Shown: positions 2,093 to 60,052, numbered from the stretch's first letter. The stretch: 64,000 nt of DNA from Defluviitaleaceae bacterium (GCA_009777845.1 WRLD01000001.1:120177-184176); one strand, 5' to 3'. The notes: generated by a model not told the origin, from the sequence alone. Made by a program: numbers and translations.

Positions 2093-3079
2093 ATGACCAC
2101 CATTATACAAATCGTAGGCATAATAATAGGCTTTGTCTTACTCATCAAGGGCGCGGACGTTTTTGTGGAGGCGAGCGTAAGCATAGCCAAGGGGCTACGC
2201 ATACCGAGTATAGTCGTGGGGCTGACAATCGTTGCCATAGGCACTAGCCTGCCCGAGCTGGTCGTATCGGTATCGGCGGCGTTGGGCGGCTCTAGCGATA
2301 TGGCGGTCGCAAATGTCGTCGGCTCAAATATTTTTAATATTCTGTTTATATTAGGCGCGTGCGCCTTGATTAAGCCAATCAATGTTCTTATAAAGGAAAT
2401 TTGGCGCGATTTTTTCGTAGCCCTTGTTGCGGCTGTGGCTTTATTTGCGGCTAGTCTAGCTTTCCGAATACCCAATGACATGAATATACTAGCTTTCCGC
2501 GGAATAATCCCTCGTAGTATTAGCCTAGCGTTTCTTGCCGCGTTTATTCTTTACATGGCTGTTTTGGTCAAGAGCGCGTTAAAAAATCGTACTCCAAGCC
2601 CAGACGAGGAAGCGGACACACCAAAAAAGCCCCTGCCTATAAGCATTTTGTTTGCCGTTTTGGGGGCAGGGGTAATTGTGCTAGGCGGACAAATAACCGT
2701 AAGCAGTGCCATGGATTTTGCCCTCAACATCGGCATTTCAGAGCGGGTGGCAGGGCTTACGATTTTGGCGGTTGGCACGTCCCTACCAGAGCTTGTTACC
2801 TCGCTTGTGGCGTGCAAAAAGGGCGAAAACGGAATAGCAATCGGCAATGTCCTTGGCTCAAATATTTTCAATATATTGGCTGTTTTGGGCATAACTGGAA
2901 TAATATCACCGCTTTTTATAGATTTAAATATGATGTTTGACCTAGCCTTTTTGGCTTTGGGCAGCTTGGTGTTTTTTGCGTTTGCGGCTACTGGCAAGGG
3001 GCTTTCGCGCTTGGAAGGCGGCGTAATGATACTGTTTTATTCCGCATATATTGTGCCGTTTGCCCTTTTAGGGTCTTAA
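2093..3079 (+). CDS. CaCA-family Ca2+/Na+ antiporter (YrbG-like), paralog 1
   Basis: 328 aa and polytopic. Both alpha-repeats are present (GTSLPELVVSV..GSNIFNIL and GTSLPELVTSL..GSNIFNIL). GGAGGA lies upstream of the ATG. Confidence 0.8.
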   Translation: MTTIIQIVGIIIGFVLLIKGADVFVEASVSIAKGLRIPSIVVGLTIVAIGTSLPELVVSVSAALGGSSDMAVANVVGSNIFNILFILGACALIKPINVLIKEIWRDFFVALVAAVALFAASLAFRIPNDMNILAFRGIIPRSISLAFLAAFILYMAVLVKSALKNRTPSPDEEADTPKKPLPISILFAVLGAGVIVLGGQITVSSAMDFALNIGISERVAGLTILAVGTSLPELVTSLVACKKGENGIAIGNVLGSNIFNILAVLGITGIISPLFIDLNMMFDLAFLALGSLVFFAFAATGKGLSRLEGGVMILFYSAYIVPFALLGS

Positions 3080-3102: not shown

Positions 3103-4059
3103 GTGGGTATAATTTTCCAAATAGTAGGCTTAATAATCGGCTTTGTCCTGCTTATAAAGGGCGCAGACGTTTTTGTCGAGGCGAGCGTAAGCATAGCCAA
3201 GGCACTACGCATACCGAGCATAGTCGTGGGGCTGACAATCGTCGCCATAGGTACTAGCCTGCCCGAGCTGGTCGTATCGGTATCGGCGGTGGTGAGCGGC
3301 TCAAGGGCTATGGCAGCAGGAAATGTCGTCGGCTCAAATATCTTCAATATCGTGCTTGTTGTAGGCGCGTGTGCCGTGGTTAGGCCTATCGGCGTTGCCC
3401 TAAAGGAAATTCGGCGCGATTTTCTCGTAGCTCTTGCCGCGGCTGTGGCTTTAGCTATCGTGCGGCTAGTTTCCGATGGGACAATCCCTCGCGGAATGAG
3501 CCTTGCGTTTGTGATTGCGCTTGTTTTTTACATGGTAGCGTTGGTTGAACGCGCGTTAAAAACTCGCACGGCAAGCCCAAGCCTAGACGAGGAAGCCCTT
3601 GCGAACACGCCAAAAAAGCCCCTGCCCATAAGCATTTTGTTTGCTGTTTTGGGGGCTGGGGTAATTGTGCTAGGCGGACAAATAACCGTAAGCACAGCCA
3701 TGGACTTAGCCCTCACTGTAGGCATTTCACAGCGAGTGGCAGGGCTTACCATTTTGGCGGTTGGCACGTCCCTGCCGGAGCTTGTTACCTCGCTCGTGGC
3801 GTGCAAAAAGGGCGAAAGCGATATAGCAATCGGCAATGTTTTTGGCTCAAATATTTTCAACATACTGGGCGTTTTGGGCGTGACGGGAATAATAACGCCT
3901 ATTTTTGTAGATTTGCATATGATGTTTGACCTAGGCGTTTTGATTGTGGGTAGCCTGGTGTTTTTGGCGTTTGCGTTTACGGACAAAAAGGTTTCGCGCC
4001 TAGAGGGCGGCGTTATGGTGTTGTTTTATTTGACGTATCTTGTTTTGCTTGCTTTTTAG
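3103..4059 (+). CDS. CaCA-family Ca2+/Na+ antiporter (YrbG-like), paralog 2
   Basis: 318 aa with a GTG start 7 nt after AGGAGG and the same alpha-repeat motifs. The N-terminal ~60 aa and C-terminal half are near-identical to the upstream paralog. Confidence 0.8.
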   Translation: MGIIFQIVGLIIGFVLLIKGADVFVEASVSIAKALRIPSIVVGLTIVAIGTSLPELVVSVSAVVSGSRAMAAGNVVGSNIFNIVLVVGACAVVRPIGVALKEIRRDFLVALAAAVALAIVRLVSDGTIPRGMSLAFVIALVFYMVALVERALKTRTASPSLDEEALANTPKKPLPISILFAVLGAGVIVLGGQITVSTAMDLALTVGISQRVAGLTILAVGTSLPELVTSLVACKKGESDIAIGNVFGSNIFNILGVLGVTGIITPIFVDLHMMFDLGVLIVGSLVFLAFAFTDKKVSRLEGGVMVLFYLTYLVLLAF

Positions 4060-4507: not shown

Positions 4508-5362
4508 TTAGTCGTTTTGTATATTCGGCACGAAAGTACCATCGTCACTAAACTTCGACATTATCGTTGGCGGAGGCATTTTGTTGAAATCTGGAGTGTC
4601 GCTAGGTGTAGAATCCGCGGACGAATTACCCGAATTAAAGGAATCCGTTGAACCAAAGGAATTGCCCGAGCTAAAGGAATCCCCCGAACCAAACGAATCC
4701 GCTGAACTGCCCGAACTAAACGAATCCGCAGAATTACCCGAACCAAACGAATCCCCTGCCCCTACTGACGAGGTCTGAATTTCCATAGGCTTAGGCTGTG
4801 CTGGCGGCATAGGCGGTCTTGGCGGTGGTGGCGGTGTCGTCGCGGACGACATAAACGAAAACTGCTCCGCTGGCTTTTGCAGCGGCGCGGGAGGTGCGGG
4901 CGGCGTAGGCATTGGCGGCGGCGTAGACATCGACTGCGTAGGCGGCGGAATCAAATCGCCGCTAGTAGGCGGAACAATGTCCACCTCTTTTAGGCGTTCA
5001 ATTAGCCTGTCCAGCTCGTCAAGGCGTTCTAATAACGAATCTATGTCGTTGCTGTCCAGCTCGGTCAAATATTTTTGTACAAGCCCTGCGTACACGTCTT
5101 GGAAAGCCTTTACCTTCATGCGCTGGTGTTCTACCTGCTCGGTCACCTTGCTTAGCTCGCGCGCGATAATGGCTTTGTACTCGTCGGCTTGGTATTTTGC
5201 GTTTTTTAGCATATTATCAGCCGCTATTTGCGCGCTAATAATCGCGTTTTTGATGGCGTTGTCCTTTTCCTTATAGCTTTTTACTACCTGCTCTAGGGTG
5301 GCGATATATCTATCAACCTCGTCGGGGTCGTAACCGCGCTTTACAAAAGTGAATTGTTCCAT
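4508..5362 (-). CDS. DivIVA-domain protein with Pro-rich and DSF-repeat C-terminal tail
   Basis: 284 aa. The N-terminal FTFVKRGYDPDEVDRYI plus a coiled coil is DivIVA-like. The C-terminal half has PPPMPTPPAPPAP followed by (A/G)DSF(G/S)SG(N/S)S low-complexity repeats. Confidence 0.75.
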   Translation of the reverse strand: MEQFTFVKRGYDPDEVDRYIATLEQVVKSYKEKDNAIKNAIISAQIAADNMLKNAKYQADEYKAIIARELSKVTEQVEHQRMKVKAFQDVYAGLVQKYLTELDSNDIDSLLERLDELDRLIERLKEVDIVPPTSGDLIPPPTQSMSTPPPMPTPPAPPAPLQKPAEQFSFMSSATTPPPPPRPPMPPAQPKPMEIQTSSVGAGDSFGSGNSADSFSSGSSADSFGSGDSFSSGNSFGSTDSFNSGNSSADSTPSDTPDFNKMPPPTIMSKFSDDGTFVPNIQND

Positions 5363-5379
5363 TAAAACTTCCCCTTTAG

Positions 5380-5418
5380 CTCGCCTTCGGCGATTTATTG
5401 TGTGCGAATTTACACTAT
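5380..5418 (-). promoter_or_regulatory. Conserved hairpin leader motif, copy L1 (upstream of the DivIVA-domain gene)
   Basis: Minus-strand sense reads ATAGTGTAAATTCGCACACAATAAATCGCCGAAGGCGAG, with hairpin TCGCC-GAA-GGCGA. An A-rich RBS follows, and the ATG at 5362 lies 18 nt after the hairpin. The same motif occurs at 13223, 59885 and 25184, with a degenerate copy at 19917. Confidence 0.5.
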
Positions 5419-5452
5419 TTCCATTTAATTAGAAAATCATAGCACAAATATT

Positions 5453-6493
5453 TCAATCACGCAAGCGTATTACATTCGCGGCTTTACGGCGTTTTGTGTC
5501 GTCCATTTTTGCATAATGCTTTCGCGTGGTGTTTACGTCACTGTGACCCAGCACATTTGCGACAAGGTAAATGTCGCTCGTTTCGGCGTACAGCTGTGTG
5601 CCAAACGTGCTACGTAATTTATGCGGCGAAATATTTTTCAGCCTAGTAACAAGCGAGGCATATTTTTTTACCATTTTCTGGATTTGCCGCGTGGTTATTC
5701 TGCGATTTTGCAGCGAAAGAAAAACCGCGTCCTCATGCCCTTTTTCGGGGAACGCCTCGTCACGCTCGTCCAAATACGCAAAAAGCGCGGCTTCTACCTC
5801 GTCGCCGAAGTACAAAATCATTTCGTCGCCGCCCTTTCGTCTTACACGCAGGCCGTTTGTTTCAAAGTCAATGTCACGCAAATTAAGCCCGACACATTCC
5901 GACACTCTCATGCCAGTTCCAAGCAACAGGGTAATAATCGCCGCGTCCCTAAGCCGCGTTTTTTCGTGGAAAACCTTTTGCCGCTCGGTTAAATTCTCGC
6001 CGCTGTCTATCTCGTCCAACAATCGCGCTATTTCGTTTGTTTCCAGTGTCGTAATCGTTTTTTCGTTCATTTTCGGGAAATCAATCAGCTCCGCAGGGTT
6101 CGCTAGTATTAGTTTCTTCTTATATAAATACTTAAAAAACACGCGCACCGCCGCGAGCTTGCGCGACTTTCCTGCCGCCGCATTCTTTACCGCCGTTTCG
6201 GGGCTTTCCGCAGGCACATAATATGTTAAATATTCCATAAATTCTTCTATGTCGTCCGACTCCACCTCACGCATTTTTTCTACAGTAATCTGCAAAACAG
6301 GCACATAAAAAACTTCCTCCGACAGGAATTTAAAAAAAATACGCAAATCATAAGCGTACCCAAGCCGCGTAAGCGTTGCCGTTTGGTCGCCAAGGCTACG
6401 AAAAAAGCCCGCCGCAAACTGCGGCAGTGTCTTTAACATCTCACGCAGCTTGAGAATGTTTTGGTTGTCTTGGTCTGTGTGGTAGGTACTCAT
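5453..6493 (-). CDS. Tyrosine recombinase, XerC/XerD-like
   Basis: 346 aa. Catalytic blocks are LLLGTGMRVSECVGL, SPHKLRSTFGTQLY and LGHSDVNTTRKHY (R...HxxR...H...Y), preceded by an N-terminal SAM-like domain. Confidence 0.8.
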   Translation of the reverse strand: MSTYHTDQDNQNILKLREMLKTLPQFAAGFFRSLGDQTATLTRLGYAYDLRIFFKFLSEEVFYVPVLQITVEKMREVESDDIEEFMEYLTYYVPAESPETAVKNAAAGKSRKLAAVRVFFKYLYKKKLILANPAELIDFPKMNEKTITTLETNEIARLLDEIDSGENLTERQKVFHEKTRLRDAAIITLLLGTGMRVSECVGLNLRDIDFETNGLRVRRKGGDEMILYFGDEVEAALFAYLDERDEAFPEKGHEDAVFLSLQNRRITTRQIQKMVKKYASLVTRLKNISPHKLRSTFGTQLYAETSDIYLVANVLGHSDVNTTRKHYAKMDDTKRRKAANVIRLRD

Positions 6494-12764: not shown

Positions 12765-12995
12765 CTATTTTATAGTGTGTTGTACATTCAATGAACATAG
12801 GGAATCTATCTCGTCAAGCACGCCCTCGTCCCCTGTCAAATGAAGGGCTTCGTACCCTGCCTTGATAAAGCCCAAAATATCCTTTTCCTCGTCAATAGCA
12901 AGGAATGTGTCCACCGTCATGCCATGCCGTTCCATATACAGCCGCGAGGAACGCGCCACCAAAAACGCCACAGGCTCAATCAATGTATGCTTCAT
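12765..12995 (-). CDS. DUF3791-like small protein (second copy)
   Basis: 76 aa. GFIKAGYEALHLTGDEGVLDEI matches my recollection of DUF3791. There is a 4-nt overlap with the upstream gene. Confidence 0.5.
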   Translation of the reverse strand: MKHTLIEPVAFLVARSSRLYMERHGMTVDTFLAIDEEKDILGFIKAGYEALHLTGDEGVLDEIDSLCSLNVQHTIK

Positions 12996-13198
12996 TCGTT
13001 ACGCTCCTCTATAAACATATCATAAACATACTCAAACACCTCTAAATATAGCCCTGTTTCGGGAATACTTAACGCCCTATAGGTGAGAGAAGCCAAAAAC
13101 TGCCGCATTGCTTGCTCTAGCGTAATGCTTTCGCTTTTGGCGTATCGGTCGGCGATACGCGCGGTTTTGGAATCGACTAGGAAGCTGTAGCCTTTCAT
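12992..13198 (-). CDS. DUF3791-like small protein (first copy)
   Basis: 68 aa with a 4-nt overlap on both sides. It is preceded by leader motif L2. Confidence 0.45.
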   Translation of the reverse strand: MKGYSFLVDSKTARIADRYAKSESITLEQAMRQFLASLTYRALSIPETGLYLEVFEYVYDMFIEERNE

Positions 13199-13782
13199 AG
13201 GCGTGTCACCTGCCTTTTTTGATTCGCCTTCGGCGATTTTTCATGTGCGAGCTTGACTATCTCTTGCCGTTGTAACAGCCTTACGGCTTCATTATTGGAA
13301 AAGAAAATTTGCTCGGGAAGATTTTCGGCTTCTATGTTTTTCAACAAGGTATTTAACGCGCTGTCGCTGTTAATTTCCCCATACAAGCCATCTAAATACG
13401 CATTTATTACTACCAGTGTATCATCGTCTGCGGTAGGCCCGACAACAACATCATAAGCATGTGCAGAATTGCGTGATTTGCGGTTAGCAAGAACAAACCG
13501 CACCCATTCAAAATCGGGCTGGGCAAAAATCTTGACACTAAGGCTTGACAATTTAGCCCCGTCTAGCTCGTATGTGTACAAATACGCCTCGCATGTATTT
13601 TTGTATCGCTCTATTTCAACGCGCTTATTGCGTATAGCCAGTTTTTCGGCGTGTATTCTGCTCCTTGTGACATAAAAGCCACGCCCAAAATCCTTGTAGG
13701 GCTTGCCCTTAGTTACATCTATTTCGTCAATCAAGGAGGTTGTGCCATGATAAACTGTCACCCTACCGTCAAAGCCCCTCAC
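13195..13782 (-). CDS. DUF3990-like protein
   Basis: GTG start. VTVYHGTTSLIDEIDV...YKDFGRGFYVT...VVGPTADDD matches the DUF3990 pattern as I recall it. The last ~22 aa (EIVKLAHEKSPKANQKRQVTRL) translate leader motif L2. Confidence 0.55.
   Translation of the reverse strand: MRGFDGRVTVYHGTTSLIDEIDVTKGKPYKDFGRGFYVTRSRIHAEKLAIRNKRVEIERYKNTCEAYLYTYELDGAKLSSLSVKIFAQPDFEWVRFVLANRKSRNSAHAYDVVVGPTADDDTLVVINAYLDGLYGEINSDSALNTLLKNIEAENLPEQIFFSNNEAVRLLQRQEIVKLAHEKSPKANQKRQVTRL
13223..13260 (-). promoter_or_regulatory. Conserved hairpin leader motif, copy L2
   Basis: Minus-strand sense reads ATAGTCAAGCTCGCACATGAAAAATCGCCGAAGGCGAA, 25 nt upstream of the ATG at 13198. It lies inside the 3' end of the DUF3990 ORF. 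Confidence 0.45.
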
Positions 13783-19793: not shown

Positions 19794-19916
19794 GGTAGCC
19801 GTTACGAAGCCTTGAGAGTTTGGCGGATTTTTTAAAGGCAATTTCCATAAACAACAATCCACGCACTTTTAAATTACACTTGCGGGAATTTTATTTTATA
19901 TTAAAATAGGTACATA

Positions 19917-19946
19917 CTTAAAAATCGCCAAGGGCAAATTAAAAAA
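19917..19946 (+). promoter_or_regulatory. Degenerate copy (L5) of the hairpin leader motif
   Basis: CTTAAAAATCGCCAAGGGCAAATTAAAAAA is followed by CTGGAGG and the ATG at 19962. It aligns to L3 with one indel, and the stem is weakened. Confidence 0.3.
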
Positions 19947-19961
19947 CTGGAGGTTACAAAA

Positions 19962-21509
19962 ATGAAAAGGCTAATTTTTGCACTGGTTGCCGTTGCCATG
20001 CTTTTTACGGCAATGCAGGTAAACGCGCAAGGCATAACCAACACCGTCCGCGAAATCAACGGCGAAATGGTTGTTATTTCCACCACGGACGGCAGGGCAT
20101 TACAGCGTGACACCACAGGCATTACCGCCTTTTCGGACGACTTCCCCGCCCCGAGCAACCCACACTGGGGCGAAAACTACGAAATACACTTTGGCGAGCT
20201 TGATTTTGCCGAGGGCATGTATCACGTTCTCTTGTACAAGGACGATGTGTTGATTTCCGACCTTCGCCATTATCTTTTCGATTGGTATAACCAAGGCTTT
20301 CTTACTGCATTTTGCCACAAATATATTACAGACAGCGGTGTCTATCGCTTTGAGGTAGCGGGAATAATCGACGCTGTATTTGACCCATCAGTCGGCTTTA
20401 CCTACGAGTGCGGAGAGTACGCCGAATCGTCAATTACGTACACCAAGCCTGCGGAAGCACTTGGCACAGCCACAAACCTACGGTGGGAGCAGGGCAGTGA
20501 CAGAATGATTTTGCACTGGGATTTACCGCCCGACGTAGACGAGAATGCGCAATACGATATATGTCTTTATAAGCTAGACGATTTGGGCGAACCAGACATT
20601 GCCGCTTTCACATACGGCATGGCGGTGCATAACCACCCTACCTACTTTGATGGGTTTAATTCTAACTGGGGATTTACAGAACCCGGCACATATTTTGCCA
20701 CAGTACGCTTGCTCAGCGGACGTTTGGACGAAATCGCCAGCGGCGTGGAAGCCGAAAGCCCCTACTACGATTTAGCCGAGGTTGTTGTCAATATCGGCAG
20801 AGATGTCGAATATCTGTTCTATGATGTGCTTGACGGCTTTGTTTCCCCCGAAGAGGCAAGGGACACACTCGCAAGCATGAACAACCACGACCTAGCCGTT
20901 GCTATGCAGGGCGACCCCGCCGTGCTTGACGACATAAAATCGCTAGAGTATTTATACAACTCCCAAAAGGGCATAAGCGTAAGCCGAACAGTAGCGGACG
21001 AAATAGACCTAGATGCGGACAAAATAAGCGTTGTCGGCGCGGGCTTCAACACAAGCGTTTTCGGGCAGGACATGAAGCTAAACTTTACCGTGCCTAACGA
21101 GCAAGTAGTAGTAAACGACAGCCAGTACAAAAACTGGGTACAGTTTAACATAGACCTAGACGGCAGAGATACGCCCGCAGGCGGAGAGCTAGACGTACCA
21201 GTACAAATTACCATGCCGATTCCTGCGGGAGTTTCGCTGATTCGGTTTGTTATACTGCACTACAAAGCGGACGGCTCCTACGACACCATTCACCCTATTC
21301 TCAACCTTGATGACGGCACGGCTACTTTTACGGTAACGCGGTTTAGCGTGTTTGTTTTCGCTAATGGCGTAGACGATGGTTTTCCCGCTACTGGCGTTTC
21401 GAGCCACACAACGCAGTCTATGCTAATGCTTGGGCTTTTTGCTGTGGCGGTTGTTTTGTTTGGGGTTGTGTTTTCTCGTGGGGCTTTATGGAATAGAACG
21501 CGGATTTAG
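19962..21509 (+). CDS. Secreted surface protein with an FPATG sorting-signal-like C-terminus
   Basis: It has a signal peptide (MKRLIFALVAVAMLFTAMQVNA). The C-terminus is FPATG, then a hydrophobic helix, then SRG...NRTRI. The last residues and the stop are encoded by a solo family A end (TGGAATAGAACGCGGATTTAG). Confidence 0.65.
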   Translation: MKRLIFALVAVAMLFTAMQVNAQGITNTVREINGEMVVISTTDGRALQRDTTGITAFSDDFPAPSNPHWGENYEIHFGELDFAEGMYHVLLYKDDVLISDLRHYLFDWYNQGFLTAFCHKYITDSGVYRFEVAGIIDAVFDPSVGFTYECGEYAESSITYTKPAEALGTATNLRWEQGSDRMILHWDLPPDVDENAQYDICLYKLDDLGEPDIAAFTYGMAVHNHPTYFDGFNSNWGFTEPGTYFATVRLLSGRLDEIASGVEAESPYYDLAEVVVNIGRDVEYLFYDVLDGFVSPEEARDTLASMNNHDLAVAMQGDPAVLDDIKSLEYLYNSQKGISVSRTVADEIDLDADKISVVGAGFNTSVFGQDMKLNFTVPNEQVVVNDSQYKNWVQFNIDLDGRDTPAGGELDVPVQITMPIPAGVSLIRFVILHYKADGSYDTIHPILNLDDGTATFTVTRFSVFVFANGVDDGFPATGVSSHTTQSMLMLGLFAVAVVLFGVVFSRGALWNRTRI

Positions 21510-25057: not shown

Positions 25058-25183
25058 TAAGGTGTCACCTCCTGCTTTGGATATGCTTATTATGCCTTTT
25101 GTTTCCAAGAATGACAAGGGTCATTCCACAAATCACTTGCAAACTTTGCTTCGTTGGTGTAAATTTACAACAATACGATTTAT

Positions 25184-25223
25184 CACTATAGCTTCGCACG
25201 TAAAAAATCGCCAAAGGCGCATC
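25184..25223 (+). promoter_or_regulatory. Conserved hairpin leader motif, copy L4 (upstream of the GGDEF gene)
   Basis: CACTATAGCTTCGCACGTAAAAAATCGCCAAAGGCGCATC is followed by an A-rich stretch, AGGGGG and the ATG at 25248. It is in the same order and orientation relative to its gene as L1-L3. Confidence 0.45.
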
Positions 25224-25247
25224 AAAAATTTCGCAGGGGGCTTATAT

Positions 25248-26000
25248 ATGGATTTATTTGCCAGAGAACAGCAAATTTACGAGGCGGTCATTGCCGAGCT
25301 TAAAGGCGCGGACAAGGACACTGTGTTCGATTTTTGCAAATACAAAAGAATAGTGGACGAATACGGCAAGCTACTAAAGCAATTTCAGCAATACAGGCAG
25401 ATTACGGGCGAGTCGGAGCGTAAGGCGCTTTTCTTGCCGCCTGAAAAGCTCGAGGTGTCGATTAGTGCGCATTATGACGTGCTTACAGGCGTTTTCAGCA
25501 AAAAATATTTGCAGGAAAACATGGAGCGCGTGCTAGGCACTATGGGGCGTAAAAACGATATTCTAAGCCTTGTAAAGGTAGATATTGACCACTTTAAGAA
25601 TTACAATGACATCTATGGCTATACCGCGGGCGACGAGTGCATACGCGGTGTTGCCGATACGCTAAAATCCTGCCTTTTTAGGGCGCAGGACTTTGTGGCG
25701 CGTTATAGCGGCGAGGAATTTATGGCGATTTTGCCGCATACGCCCGAGGAAGGCTCGCGGCTTGTGGCGGAGCGTATGCTAGAGGGCGTACGCAACCTAA
25801 AAATTCCGCATCTTGGCAACAAGGGCGTGGGCTTCGTCACCGTTTCCATAGGGCTTGTCGCAAGCAAGCGTACCCCAGGCGAGCTTACGATTGACGACTT
25901 TTTCAAAAGCGCAGACCAGGCGTTGGCGGAAGCGCAGAGCCTAGGCAGAAATCAGTATTCGTTTGTAGAATTAACGGACAGTGCAGAGGACGGTAAATGA
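25248..26000 (+). CDS. GGDEF-domain diguanylate cyclase with SGEEF active-site variant and RxxD I-site
   Basis: ATG at 25248 with AGGGGG 8 nt upstream. VDIDHFKNYNDIYGYTAGDECI...RAQDFVARYSGEEFMAIL shows RAQD exactly 5 aa before SGEEF. Confidence 0.75.
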   Translation: MDLFAREQQIYEAVIAELKGADKDTVFDFCKYKRIVDEYGKLLKQFQQYRQITGESERKALFLPPEKLEVSISAHYDVLTGVFSKKYLQENMERVLGTMGRKNDILSLVKVDIDHFKNYNDIYGYTAGDECIRGVADTLKSCLFRAQDFVARYSGEEFMAILPHTPEEGSRLVAERMLEGVRNLKIPHLGNKGVGFVTVSIGLVASKRTPGELTIDDFFKSADQALAEAQSLGRNQYSFVELTDSAEDGK

Positions 26001-57504: not shown

Positions 57505-57545
57505 GTTTTTTGTATGGGACGGATTTATCCGTCCCATACAAAAAA
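57505..57545. repeat. Core-less family C palindrome (single perfect hairpin)
   Basis: TTTTTTGTATGGGACGGATTTATCCGTCCCATACAAAAAA has ~19-bp arms around TT. Confidence 0.85.
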
Positions 57546-57907: not shown

Positions 57908-58013
57908 TACGCAGACGTGAAAATCATTCACGGAGCAAACGCCTGCAATTGCCTTTTAATTACGCAGACGTGAAAATCATTCACGGAGCGAACGCCCGCA
58001 ATTGCCTTTTTAT
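57908..58013. repeat. 53-bp tandem duplication (x2) spanning the 3' end of the BspA-like gene
   Basis: TACGCAGACGTGAAAATCATTCACGGAGC(A/G)AACGCC(T/C)GCAATTGCCTTTT.AT appears twice (50/53 identical). Each unit contains the stop codon and last ~10 codons (..KRQLRAFAP) plus a CGTGAA/TTCACG hairpin. Confidence 0.8.
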
Positions 58014-59867
58014 GAAATACCCCCACGCCACTATTGAAGCGGTTAAGAATACAATCATCAACACGGTCAAAGGCGTTCTGTCCCCAACCCCAGTAACAGG
58101 AAAGCAAGTATGAGGATAGCGTCCGCACCATTCACAAAAATACTTCGCCCATATCCATTGCTCGGCGGCGTTTCTGCTGTCATTAGTCCGCAGATAATCC
58201 CACAGCTCGGCAGACGTAAGCGTGTCGTCATTACCCACGGTACGCCAATCGCCGCCGTTTTCCTCGGAAACCTCGGGCAGGGAATTATCGTCACGACTTA
58301 TAAATTTTTCGCCAAAGGTAATGCTTTTTAAGTCGCTCGTACCTAAAAACATCATATCCATACTCATAACATTGCCTGTGTCGAAGCCCGATAAGTCAAG
58401 GGAGGTTAGCCCGCTCGCACCGTAAAACATACCCGACATATCCATAACATTGCCTGTGTCAAAGCCCGACAAGTCAAGGGCGGTTAGACCTCTCGTAGCA
58501 CTAAACATACCCCTCATCCTCGCAACATTGCTTGTGTCAAAGCCCGATACGTCAAGGGTGGTTAGACCGCTCGCACCGCTAAACATACCAAACATATCCG
58601 TAACCTTGCTTGTGTCAAAGCCCGACACATCAAGGGAGGTTAGACCGCTCGCACCGCCAAACATACCATACATACTCGTAACATTGCTTGTGTCAAAGCC
58701 CGACACATCAAGGGTGGTTAGACCGCTCGCACCGCTAAACATACCAAACATATCCGTAACCTTGCTTGTGTCAAAGCCCGACACATCAAGGGAGGTTAGA
58801 CCGCTCGCACCGCCAAACATGTTAACCATATCCATAACCTTGCTTGTGTCAAAGCCCGACACATCAAGGGAGGTTAGACCGCTCGCACCGTAAAACATGT
58901 GATCCATATCCGTAACATTGCTTGTGTTCCAACCAGATACGTCAAGAGCGGTTAAACCGCTCGCGCCTTCAAACATCCTCTCCATATTCGTAACCTTGCT
59001 TGTGTCAAAGCCTAACAAGTCAAGGGTGGTTAGACCGCTTGCACCGAAAAACATGTTACTCATATTCGTAACATTGCTTGTGTCGAAGTCTGACACATCA
59101 AGGGTGGTTAGACCGCTCGCACCGCGAAACATCCACGACATATTCGTAACCTTGCTAGTGTCAAAGCCCGACACATCAAGGGTGGTTAGCCCGCTCGCAC
59201 CGTAAAACATACCCGACATATCCATAACATTGCCTGTGTCAAAGCCCGATAAGTCAAGGGTTGTTAATTTATTAGAACTAAACATACGCTCCATATTCGT
59301 AACCTTGCTTGTGTCCCAACCCGATAAGTCAAGGGTGGTTACGCTCAATACATAGTTAAACATGCCTGCCATATTCGTAACATTGCTTGTGTCCCAACCC
59401 GATAAGTCAAGGGTGGTTACGCTCACTACATAGTTAAACATGCCTGCCATATTCGTAACATAGCTTGTGTCAAGAAAGCCCAAGCCCTCAATTTCTGTTA
59501 CATTAAACAAGTAAGAGAATAGGTACATTAGGCTTTCCCCCGCAGTAATCGGGGCAGTGAAGCTAATACGTGTAATGCTGTCTGCGTAATCGCCCCACGG
59601 ACTGTCCCAGTCGGTATTATTGATATACCCACCGCCGACCACTAGCTCCCCGCACTCGAATAACTGCCATTCCGCGCCTGTGCCTAGTGTCGAGTGGTCG
59701 AGGAATTTGTCGTTAGCCGTGACGGAGTGCGGAACGTCACAGGAGCAGGGCGTGCTTGCGTAGACCGCGGTGGTAAGTACCACCACGCAGAGTGCCATAA
59801 GTAATACTAAACCGAATACTTTAACTAATCCTAAGCGTTCTTGAGTTTTTCTAATTTCCATTTTCAT
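57981..59867 (-). CDS. BspA-type leucine-rich-repeat surface protein (DUF285-like repeats) with FPVTG sorting-signal-like C-terminus
   Basis: The start is at ATG 59867 or 59861 (AGAGGGG upstream). It has a signal peptide and about seventeen 26-aa units LDVSGFDTS(K/N)VT.M..MF.GASGLT.. The C-terminus is FPVTG, then a TM helix, then KRQ. Confidence 0.8.
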   Translation of the reverse strand: MKMEIRKTQERLGLVKVFGLVLLMALCVVVLTTAVYASTPCSCDVPHSVTANDKFLDHSTLGTGAEWQLFECGELVVGGGYINNTDWDSPWGDYADSITRISFTAPITAGESLMYLFSYLFNVTEIEGLGFLDTSYVTNMAGMFNYVVSVTTLDLSGWDTSNVTNMAGMFNYVLSVTTLDLSGWDTSKVTNMERMFSSNKLTTLDLSGFDTGNVMDMSGMFYGASGLTTLDVSGFDTSKVTNMSWMFRGASGLTTLDVSDFDTSNVTNMSNMFFGASGLTTLDLLGFDTSKVTNMERMFEGASGLTALDVSGWNTSNVTDMDHMFYGASGLTSLDVSGFDTSKVMDMVNMFGGASGLTSLDVSGFDTSKVTDMFGMFSGASGLTTLDVSGFDTSNVTSMYGMFGGASGLTSLDVSGFDTSKVTDMFGMFSGASGLTTLDVSGFDTSNVARMRGMFSATRGLTALDLSGFDTGNVMDMSGMFYGASGLTSLDLSGFDTGNVMSMDMMFLGTSDLKSITFGEKFISRDDNSLPEVSEENGGDWRTVGNDDTLTSAELWDYLRTNDSRNAAEQWIWAKYFCEWCGRYPHTCFPVTGVGDRTPLTVLMIVFLTASIVAWGYFIKRQLRAFAP

Positions 59868-59884
59868 AACCCCTCTTTTTTTGA

Positions 59885-59923
59885 CTCGCCTTCGGCGATT
59901 TTTCATGTGCGACTTTACACTAT
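59885..59923 (-). promoter_or_regulatory. Conserved hairpin leader motif, copy L3 (upstream of the BspA-like gene)
   Basis: Minus-strand sense reads ATAGTGTAAAGTCGCACATGAAAAATCGCCGAAGGCGAG, then TCAAAAAAAGAGGGGTT and the ATG. Confidence 0.5.
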
Positions 59924-60052
59924 CTATTTTATCGTAAAGCTCCACACAGATTTTACCCCCTCCCACAAAAAAATGCAAACACATAAGAGTTGCCTTTCCA
60001 AGCCCTCTTATTATACAATATCCTATAAAATCTCAAAGGAAGTGCAAACGCG

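Follow-up and report, generated by a model that had tools for sequence, protein, structure and literature searches.

A short hairpin repeat inserted before the Shine-Dalgarno sequences of unrelated genes in a Defluviitaleaceae genome: a candidate mobile mRNA leader

How does one and the same sequence come to stand before the ribosome-binding sites of five unrelated genes, and what does it do there? This question is raised by a 64,000-nucleotide stretch of the Defluviitaleaceae bacterium genome (GCA_009777845.1, WRLD01000001.1:120177-184176), in the following called the window, in which a hairpin-bearing element of about 40 nucleotides (nt), with one copy at positions 5,380 to 5,418, had been described in a first-pass annotation as a mobile leader or promoter cassette. 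The window corresponds to C1:120177-184176 of a draft assembly (2.98 Mb, 67 contigs, 47.5% G+C, 96.65% complete). In our reading, to which we give an even chance, the element is a mobile, transcribed 5'-leader or intercistronic cassette, belonging to a family of short non-coding, non-autonomous insertions whose 3' module would act on the mRNA.

A motif search of the window gave three minus-strand matches (5381-5407, 13224-13250 and 59886-59912) with 0-2 mismatches, where 0 were expected by chance, and each of them is followed by an A-run, a purine-rich Shine-Dalgarno (SD) sequence and then the start codon. With a covariance model built from the genome copies and run with filters off, all five copies claimed before were recovered, and all five lie in the gene-sense orientation attributed to them; the fifth, rightly called degenerate, is marginal (18.1 bits, E=0.002). 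The distance of 18-27 nt to the start codon, which had been given for all of them, holds for four of the five when measured from the hairpin end. The number of five proved to be an underestimate, since about 80 copies are present genome-wide.

Position of the element and its insertion at orthologous sites

A nhmmer profile derived from 50 exact-hairpin sites yielded 77 copies in the genome at a threshold of E<0.01. The covariance model R1 (from alignment A1), with which cmsearch carried out the genome scan proposed earlier, found 83. The copies are scattered over more than 45 contigs. Each of the 77 is followed on the same strand by an SD with its start codon and open reading frame (ORF). The hairpin end lies 18-27 nt before the start in 67 of them, with the first GG of the SD 6-15 nt past the hairpin, and start codons as well as SD spacing differ among the copies. 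In a strict position test (distance of 14-30 nt, SD, and an ORF no shorter than 60 amino acids (aa)) 70 of the 77 copies passed, compared to 3.4% of 20,000 random control positions (binomial P ~1e-94), so that the bias toward start codons, on which the cassette idea had been staked, is clearly observable. Every match of the model is a gene-sense copy.

The orientation of the copies tracks the genes and not the replication strand. The G>C strand holds 48 of the 77 copies (62%) compared to 63% of the long ORFs, and in regions of strong skew its share is 73% for copies and 73% for ORFs, which argues against a mechanism acting on lagging-strand single-stranded DNA. Multiple copies at one site are direct tandems beside the SD (C3:46186-46290, C19:39934-40012, and two copies before tuf in the sister species G004) and never inverted doublets. 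This stacking suggests that the target is set from the SD side.

An all-against-all BLASTP comparison showed that 64 of the 77 downstream proteins are singletons, and their functions extend from alaS to bacteriocin-like peptides, which rules out a coherent regulon. The genes confirmed by NCBIfam comprise alaS, argS, typA, minD, dapF, acpS, xseB, dpaB, the GPR endopeptidase gene gpr and the YabP gene yabP, and two genes for extracytoplasmic function (ECF) sigma factors bear the element as well. Based on the spore genes dpaB, gpr and yabP, the host genome is that of an endospore-forming Firmicute. At C26:18826-20000(+), one copy each belongs to three paralogous ORFs (106-114 aa) arranged in tandem; their N-termini (MKDENK...EEQLGE(I/V)SGG) resemble the double-glycine leader peptides of precursors of the bacteriocin type or of ribosomally synthesized and post-translationally modified peptides (RiPPs).

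The comparison of orthologous sites shows that the element is an inserted block, strictly in sense and next to the SD. The gene upstream of alaS ends with ...NGEFVF* both in this genome and in the sister G004, where the junction TAG-AGGAGTGATTAAA-ATG is empty and contains the native SD AGGAGTG. In this genome the junction reads TAA-[GCAAAATATAAGCTCGCACATGGAAAATCGCCGAAGGCGAGTCAAAT]-AAGGAGTGCATCT-ATG (also written TAA-[48 nt]-AAGGAGTG), so that a block of about 48 nt stands between the stop codon and the SD; since AGGAGTG is common to the empty site, the SD is native and not borne by the element. Conversely, a 42-nt copy precedes rpsD in G004 and another copy precedes leuD in G003, both sites being empty in this genome. 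The genes maf and acpS as well as dpaA and dpaB overlap in relatives, or the SD lies inside the upstream gene, and here the element separates them. Such presence/absence polymorphism at the alaS, rpsD, leuD, acpS and dpaB sites is a property expected of miniature inverted-repeat transposable elements (MITEs). In the case of typA, the TGnTATAAT box is kept in all species compared; the 5' untranslated regions (UTRs) of the relatives are unrelated and roughly 35-80 nt long, and here the UTR from box to SD is the element.

Insertion also affects the genes in front. A co-directional upstream ORF is present at 58 of the 77 copies, and about 40 of these ORFs end between -21 and +12 nt from the element's 5' edge, frequently with a stop inside the element (TAG at columns 10-12, TAA at columns 15-17 or TGA at columns 27-29 of the alignment). 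In this genome Maf and DpaA are shortened by a few residues, their stops being the element's own TAA or TGA. The element thus supplies stops to upstream ORFs which it cuts, a feature missed by the first-pass annotation. A further 17 copies lie at divergent promoters. Judged from these comparisons, the insertion slot lies between the native SD and an upstream feature, which is the stop codon of the gene in front or the -10 box of the downstream gene itself, and an element in this slot would become the whole intercistronic spacer or the mRNA 5' end.

Some broader constructions were considered and rejected. An integron attC or cassette array does not agree with dispersed copies and with the same flanking genes occurring with and without the element. 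A larger composite element was rejected because the likeness of upstream flanks stems from other repeat families at variable distances; about 20 copies (e.g. on C19, C39, C29, C64, C40, C27 and C6) have such families of 45-110 nt in their flanks, and the intergenic regions of the genome are packed with several independent repeat families. At the alaS stop-to-SD junction of G003 (L069, G003:C43:9509-9539), a 10-bp hairpin GTTCGCGGGG-CTTC-CCCCGCGAAC followed by an A-rich tract was observed, which as a parallel repeat family was dismissed, since it is single-copy in the four genomes searched.

Conserved architecture

Column numbers refer to alignment A1, and the information profile was derived from the 49 best copies. 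Conservation is confined to columns 8-56 (~49 nt), with ~0 bits upstream of column 8, and the profile reads G8 R9 Y10 AGTG Y15 AAA K19 U CGCACA UG AAAAA [UCGCC GAA GGCGA] R47 Y48 CAAAAAAA. Two forms can be described, a full form of ~49 nt (G-R-Y-AGTGYAAAKTCGCACAUG-AAAAA-UCGCC-GAA-GGCGA-RYC-A5-7) and a minimal form of ~28 nt starting at the A5 tract. About 30 columns are invariant in the 49 copies, and six columns (9, 10, 15, 19, 47 and 48) are split almost 50/50 and assort freely, resulting in 40 haplotypes.

The 5-bp hairpin UCGCC-GAA-GGCGA is 98-100% paired and is the sole structure kept by RNAalifold. Its loop is GAA in 50 copies and AAA in 10, followed by GAG, GCA and GUA. One copy of this genome has the compensated stem CCGCC/GGCGG, and the sister species carry the stem (U/C)GGCC/GGCCA (12 copies in G006 and 6 in G004), in all cases SD-proximal and with the GCACAUG-N5 and RNYAAA flanks retained. 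At the level of sequence, these exchanges show a hairpin maintained by compensation.

The two halves of the element are retained to different extents. The 3' module AAAAA-hairpin-RYCAAA occurs 77 times at up to 2 mismatches, in 27 cases without a recognisable 5' half; the 5' half occurs 40 times and is followed by the hairpin in 39, leaving one 5' half without it. Either the short form is ancestral or decay takes the 5' half and spares the 3' module in place, and under both readings the 3' module, which is preferentially retained, is the part that matters.

Known families gave no match. The proposed comparison with Rfam by cmscan yielded only 2 tRNAs at the gathering threshold in the window, and for copy 3 at E<=10 only chance matches to CRISPR direct repeats (CRISPR-DR, E ~4.6-4.7). 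An upstream ORF or translational relay from the AUG at column 26 was likewise rejected, since the AUG is missing in 34 of 77 copies, has no SD, and its frames with respect to the gene are roughly uniform (32/29/16).

Read in reverse complement, the element is terminator-like, with TCGCCTTCGGCGA followed by TTTTTC, and the folding energy of the antisense strand is -7.5 kcal/mol (z=-1.7). On the sense strand an A-tract follows the stem, so that only the antisense strand fits an intrinsic terminator. Antisense insertions would therefore be selected against, which does not explain the fixed position.

Leader function, targeted insertion and further explanations

Where no gene lies tightly upstream, as is the case for 39 copies, good -10 boxes were found 2-30 nt upstream of column 11, several of them with an extended TG, and sigma-A -10 boxes upstream of the element at first genes are exemplified by typA (TGgTATAAT), minD and dapF. 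Since these boxes lie upstream, the element should be transcribed as a leader, and we infer that it forms the 5' end of first-gene mRNAs or the spacer of polycistronic ones. Together with the empty and filled ortholog sites and the unrelated downstream genes, this supports the earlier idea of a portable 5' UTR cassette.

The module of A-tract, 5-bp G+C hairpin and RYCAAAA, which stands 9-15 nt before the SD, would give the downstream cistron a standard leader acting in cis, and it probably acts on mRNA processing, stability or translation. The arrangement U-G|A-AAAA-hairpin may represent an RNase Y-type processing site. In the 49 copies, columns 27-29 carry U (86%), G (84%) and A (90%), followed by A5 and the stem, a match in sequence features only. 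RNase Y is described with a G/A cut, U at -2/-3 and an AU-rich context; it can be guided by structure ~6 nt downstream, and its cleavage of saePQRS stabilises the downstream fragment (PMC11780869, PMC5449607). Either cleavage or the start of transcription would yield a protective 5'-proximal hairpin and after it an unstructured A-rich landing zone for the ribosome before the SD, and the stops in the 5' part would end upstream frames cut by the insertion. Unrelated 5' UTR hairpins with a short A-rich stretch between them and the SD occur at tuf of this genome and at typA of relatives, which indicates that the order of hairpin, A-rich stretch and SD is native to the clade, whose own highly expressed genes appear to use it.

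Several observations weigh against such a function. The hairpin comprises 5 bp compared to the 24 bp of the sae guide structure, and the folding energy of the whole leader is no better than that of shuffles (z -0.2 to -1.1). Further helices find weak support: hp1 (columns 12-15 with 22-25, 77% of cells paired) was dropped by RNAalifold, and in the closing helix P0 (columns 8-10 with 47-49, 68% of cells paired) the pair 9:48 is AU in 20, GC in 16, GU in 8 and other in 14 cases, with a covariation P of 0.017, uncorrected. In addition, the invariant CGCACA block is left unexplained by the leader model, and the SD-proximal rule (77 of 77) is explained more easily by targeted insertion than by selection, without a host function being required.

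Targeted insertion is the core of an alternative that we regard as possible, though on the unlikely side. The element would be purely selfish, a recombinase or other copying process would aim at the DNA directly 5' of the SD as a safe harbour, and the conserved bases would serve mobility and not the host. Uniform orientation and position would then be by-products of targeting and of the purging of antisense, terminator-like copies, and the terminator-like reverse complement agrees with this. Further points in its favour are a positional precision of 100% even where long intergenic regions are available, the turnover of insertion sites between species, tandem stacking beside the SD (C3 at 46.2 kb, C19 at 39.9 kb, twofold before tuf in G004 and fourfold on the metagenome contig L172), and an exact copy on the metagenome contig L173, which is dissimilar to this genome. 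However, terminal inverted repeats (TIRs) are lacking, the ends being GRYAGTG... and ...RYCAAAAAAA, of which GRY and RYC could pair over 3 bp (68% of cells paired), and a target site duplication (TSD) specific to the single copy is also missing, since the longest common substring (LCS) of the flanks is 4.22 for the same copy vs 4.27 across copies (local score P=0.165). Nor were a Y1 transposase, a reverse transcriptase or an IS607 transposase found above cut-off in the ~96.7%-complete assembly. PF01797 (Y1, HUH) gave 0 matches in the genome, with positive controls matching, and PF00078 (reverse transcriptase) also gave 0. The best match to NF033518 (IS607 TnpA) reached 45.9 bits compared to a cut-off of 110 bits, so that only generic serine recombinases were seen; these negative results are weakened by the draft state of the assembly, which may lack insertion sequence (IS) copies. 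Moreover, decayed copies keep A5-hairpin-RYCAAA in place and lose the 5' half (27 vs 1), which is unexpected of resident fossils of a purely selfish element, and the columns are invariant or saturated, unlike uniform decay. The selfish element and the leader are not mutually exclusive, and a rather doubtful proposal combines them. A new kind of mobile DNA would have an integration machinery that recognises the DNA just 5' of the coding-strand SD, leaves no TSD or TIR and uses no Y1, reverse transcriptase or IS607 enzyme; the host would have domesticated A5-hairpin-RYCAAAA as a plug-in leader uncoupling cistrons and standardising mRNA 5' ends, with stems co-evolved in each species.

The remaining explanations concern the conserved bases. 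Sequence-specific conservation beyond the needs of a hairpin (CGCACA, the A5 tract, the loop GAA and CAAA) would be expected if the element were the operator at which a single trans-acting factor, be it an RNA-binding protein or a small RNA, recognises CGCACAUG and the hairpin; ~80 mRNAs would thereby be co-regulated post-transcriptionally, and the mobile element would wire genes into a regulon. Retention of GCACAUG-N5-hairpin in the GGCC-stem subfamily of the sister species agrees with it, as does the case of the analogous TAACTGA repeats, with S1, Csp or CsrA as their proposed binders (PMC4679880). We nevertheless consider this improbable, because the targets are functionally incoherent (tRNA synthetases, cell division, spore and accessory genes), no candidate factor was identified, no complementary sequence was seen elsewhere in the genome, and loop and stem sequences vary between species. 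Even less can be said for an outward-facing promoter, which the first-pass annotation had suggested with a transcription start at TCGCAC and which appears very improbable. It would be read by sigma-A with a weak -10 (YAAAKT, columns 15-20) or by an alternative or ECF-type sigma factor (TGYAAA-N16-CGCC), with transcription starting in or just after the element. The hexamer at columns 15-20 retains A2 (96%) and T6 (84%), a few degenerate copies (C55, copy 4, C39) have a true TATACT, TATAGC or TATAAT over the 5' half, the element stands before the two ECF sigma genes, and with Neisseria REP2 a promoter-bearing repeat is known (PMC3184786). Nonetheless, no -35 is conserved at any spacing, the information upstream of column 8 being ~0 bits, the putative spacer is the most conserved part of the element, the TG dinucleotide does not stand in the register of an extended -10, and the hexamers TGYAAA and AAAAAT are without A2/T6 or T1/T3. 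Promoter-like sites occurred only outside the element in a consensus scan, first-gene copies have their independent -10 boxes upstream, short-form copies are entirely without the 5' half, and about half of all copies lie directly between co-directional genes. In a by-eye check against consensus sequences, sigma-28, sigma-54, ECF, cre, Spo0A-box, lambda nut-like and ops-like sites were rejected as well, since spacing or key bases misfit and the putative spacers are the best-conserved parts. The terminator-like opposite strand with its fold, finally, would suit a one-way insulator at the DNA or RNA level, in which hairpin and U5 stop antisense transcription leaving the gene's 5' end. With a stem of just 5 bp, the fixed SD distance and the conserved CGCACA and CAAAA blocks unexplained, and no obvious use at the 17 divergent promoters, its likelihood is next to negligible.

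With regard to recombinases in general, the 3-Mb genome contains about eight small (~200-aa) ORFs of the serine recombinase/invertase type (C20:12079, C63:6459, C2:95528, C18:53235, C62:6976, C58:8834, C43:19171 and C30:35616) and five larger ones (338-677 aa).

Related systems, occurrence in other genomes and the copies of the window

The element belongs with the small dispersed repeats that shape gene expression, and what is unusual about it is the absolute rule of position and orientation, along with the fact that leaders of essential genes are among its insertion sites. It lacks the defining properties of a classical MITE, a RAYT or IS200/605 repeat, an IS607 derivative, a REP2 cassette, a sigma-70 promoter and any Rfam family. 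Neisseria REP2 (~26 copies) and Borrelia IR-A/IR-B are dispersed upstream repeats which carry their own promoter, ribosome-binding site and ATG (review PMC3184786). The likeness lies in dispersed non-TIR repeats with internal stem-loops, standing in sense directly upstream of unrelated ORFs as portable cassettes. The present element differs in its 28-49 nt, its ~80 copies, the absence of a promoter signature and a native SD and start left in place, and it also supplies stops for the upstream gene. The TAACTGA direct repeats of marine Beggiatoaceae occur by the hundreds a few nt upstream of the starts of unrelated genes including essential ones; a post-transcriptional role is suspected and horizontal spread suggested, with no mechanism known (PMC4679880). 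They share with the element the short sequence and the place close before functionally unrelated genes, essential ones included. However, they are tandem heptamers without hairpin where canonical ribosome-binding sites seldom occur, and they are present in several phyla (PMC4679880), whereas the element is a single structured unit upstream of strong SDs in one genus and its habitat.

REP/BIME, REPINs (RAYT, Y1) and the PATEs of IS200/IS605 are short G+C hairpin repeats without TSD or TIR as well, often intercistronic and co-transcribed and known to affect mRNA stability. Many copies of the element show a REP-like GTAG-like tetranucleotide at columns 9-12. In contrast to these repeats, the element occurs in a genome without a Y1 match, forms no inverted doublets, stands before starts and not after stops, and its orientation tracks the genes. 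Classical MITEs (Correia/NEMIS, ERIC, RUP, BOX) are likewise small non-autonomous insertions which vary between related genomes, are co-transcribed and can alter the expression of neighbours, but the element is without TIRs and TSDs, and its strict single orientation and position class are atypical of them. The RNase Y sites of S. aureus saePQRS and B. subtilis cggR-gapA also lie between co-transcribed genes, with U-G|A in an A-rich stretch before a stem. Those are unique loci, with a guide helix of 24 bp in sae, whereas here a dispersed repeat with a 5-bp stem agrees in sequence features only.

The element is genus-restricted: the minimal model found 78 copies in this genome and 0-8 per genome in nine congeners, and the 30 genomes taken from 18 other genera of the family had none. 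The gene tuf bears it in G004 (two tandem copies) and in G006; in this genome tuf is without it and has in its UTR the unrelated hairpin and short A-rich stretch already mentioned. Exact cores were also found on five JGI metagenome contigs, each before an SD and ATG. One of them, L172 (Ga0123356_10027411), carries a fourfold direct tandem array at 3366-3557(+) and derives from a related organism, with 78% DNA identity to contig C12 over 1 kb. On L173 (Ga0131853_10000395, a 79.8-kb contig) a perfect full-length copy at 2639-2695(-) precedes a 159-aa ORF, and the fetched stretch of 14.5 kb showed no DNA or protein similarity to this genome (11 ORFs tested). The region looks like a mobile element and could be a vehicle for transfer between hosts. 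Collections of phages, plasmids and viral contigs gave no match.

The 19-mer GAAAAATCGCCGAAGGCGA is multi-copy in the metagenome-assembled genomes (MAGs) CALDIB01, CAMOTL01 and CAMNPJ01 of uncultured Treponema (L011, L012, L014, L018, L019, L021, L024, L027, L029 and L033), where it sits at the apex of a repeated long palindrome, GTCGCGCTATTATAGCGAC...GGCACTTTCGAAAAATCGCCGAAGGCGAGTTTTTCGAAAGTGCC. A Treponema origin was rejected, since the 19-mer sits in a different long palindrome there and the genome of the window carries dpaB, gpr and yabP. A hairpin core shared by ancestry or by exchange between phyla is possible. One or more of the Treponema run names also yield an Elusimicrobia MAG and thereby suggest a gut of the termite type as habitat.

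If the leader reading is true, ~3% of the organism's genes run on one interchangeable leader acquired by insertion, among them tRNA synthetase, cell-division and sporulation genes, and tuf and rpsD in sister species. Operons would be naturally rewired independently of promoters, as for maf-acpS and dpaA-dpaB, which would be physically uncoupled with the upstream proteins shortened. The minimal module would then also serve in synthetic operons of Gram-positive hosts as a compact natural insulator part. Two questions are raised, how a sequence of 28-49 nt gets aimed before the ribosome-binding site without known transposition hallmarks, and whether a minimal A-tract/5-bp-hairpin/A-tract module is enough to set mRNA processing, stability or translation in Firmicutes.

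Table 1. Copies of the element in the window and the features next to them (scores from the covariance model as described in the text)
Feature	Position	Strand	Description
Copy 3	59875..59931	-	cmsearch 81.2 bits, E=4.8e-22; exact motif match; full-length consensus type
Copy 3, hairpin	59886-59898	-	sequence of the copy: GATAGTGTAAAGTCGCACATGAAAAATCGCCGAAGGCGAGTCAAAAAAAG
Gene after copy 3	57981..59867	-	628 aa; Pfam DUF285 3.5e-139, leucine-rich repeat (LRR), 'BspA-like'; hairpin to ATG 18 nt
TTTGCA-18-TAAAAT, sigma-70-like	59950..59979	-	consensus scan, pattern match only; ~19 nt upstream of copy 3
Copy 2	13213..13269	-	cmsearch 61 bits; exact motif; hairpin 13224-13236; within the 3' end of the upstream ORF
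DUF3990 ORF upstream of copy 2	13195..13782	-	Pfam DUF3990 2.8e-38; tail ...EIVKLAHEKSPKANQKRQVTRL*
ORF after copy 2	12992..13198	-	68 aa; earlier 'DUF3791-like'; no Pfam match
Copy 1	5370..5426	-	cmsearch 60.6 bits; hairpin 5381-5393; motif variant CACACAATAAA, 2 mismatches
Gene after copy 1	4508..5362	-	284 aa; DivIVA 24.9 bits vs Pfam cut-off 28; hairpin to ATG 18 nt
Copy 4	25175..25231	+	cmsearch 38.8 bits; diverged; loop AAA; closing pair broken (GGCGC)
Gene after copy 4	25248..26000	+	GGDEF diguanylate cyclase, 250 aa; Pfam GGDEF 3e-40
Copy 5	19899..19948	+	cmsearch 18.1 bits, E=0.002, filters-off only; degenerate remnant AAAAATCGCCAAGGGCAAATTAAAAAACTGGAGG
Gene after copy 5	19962..21509	+	515 aa; no Pfam match; signal-peptide-like N-terminus

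Among the five window copies (Table 1), copy 3 would stand at a transcript 5' end if the putative promoter upstream of it is used. Copy 2 had been described as coding for the tail of the preceding ORF, and translation confirms that the DUF3990 ORF runs through it, its stop overlapping the next start codon as ATGA. The 5' half of copy 4 has drifted into TATAGC, a -10-like hexamer. With regard to the genes, the earlier GGDEF label is correct and the BspA-like protein is a DUF285/LRR protein, DivIVA lies below the Pfam cut-off, and the label DUF3791-like finds no Pfam match. Directly upstream of copy 1 and co-directional with it lies an XerC/D-type tyrosine recombinase (5453-6493(-), Phage_integrase 1.4e-34). 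At 57505-57545(-) of the window, a 'family C' palindrome, TGTATGGGACGGATAAATCCGTCCCATACA, comes before AAAAACAACCACAAGGGGG and an ATG, so that the same hairpin/A-rich/SD slot before a gene is taken here by a second, unrelated repeat family.

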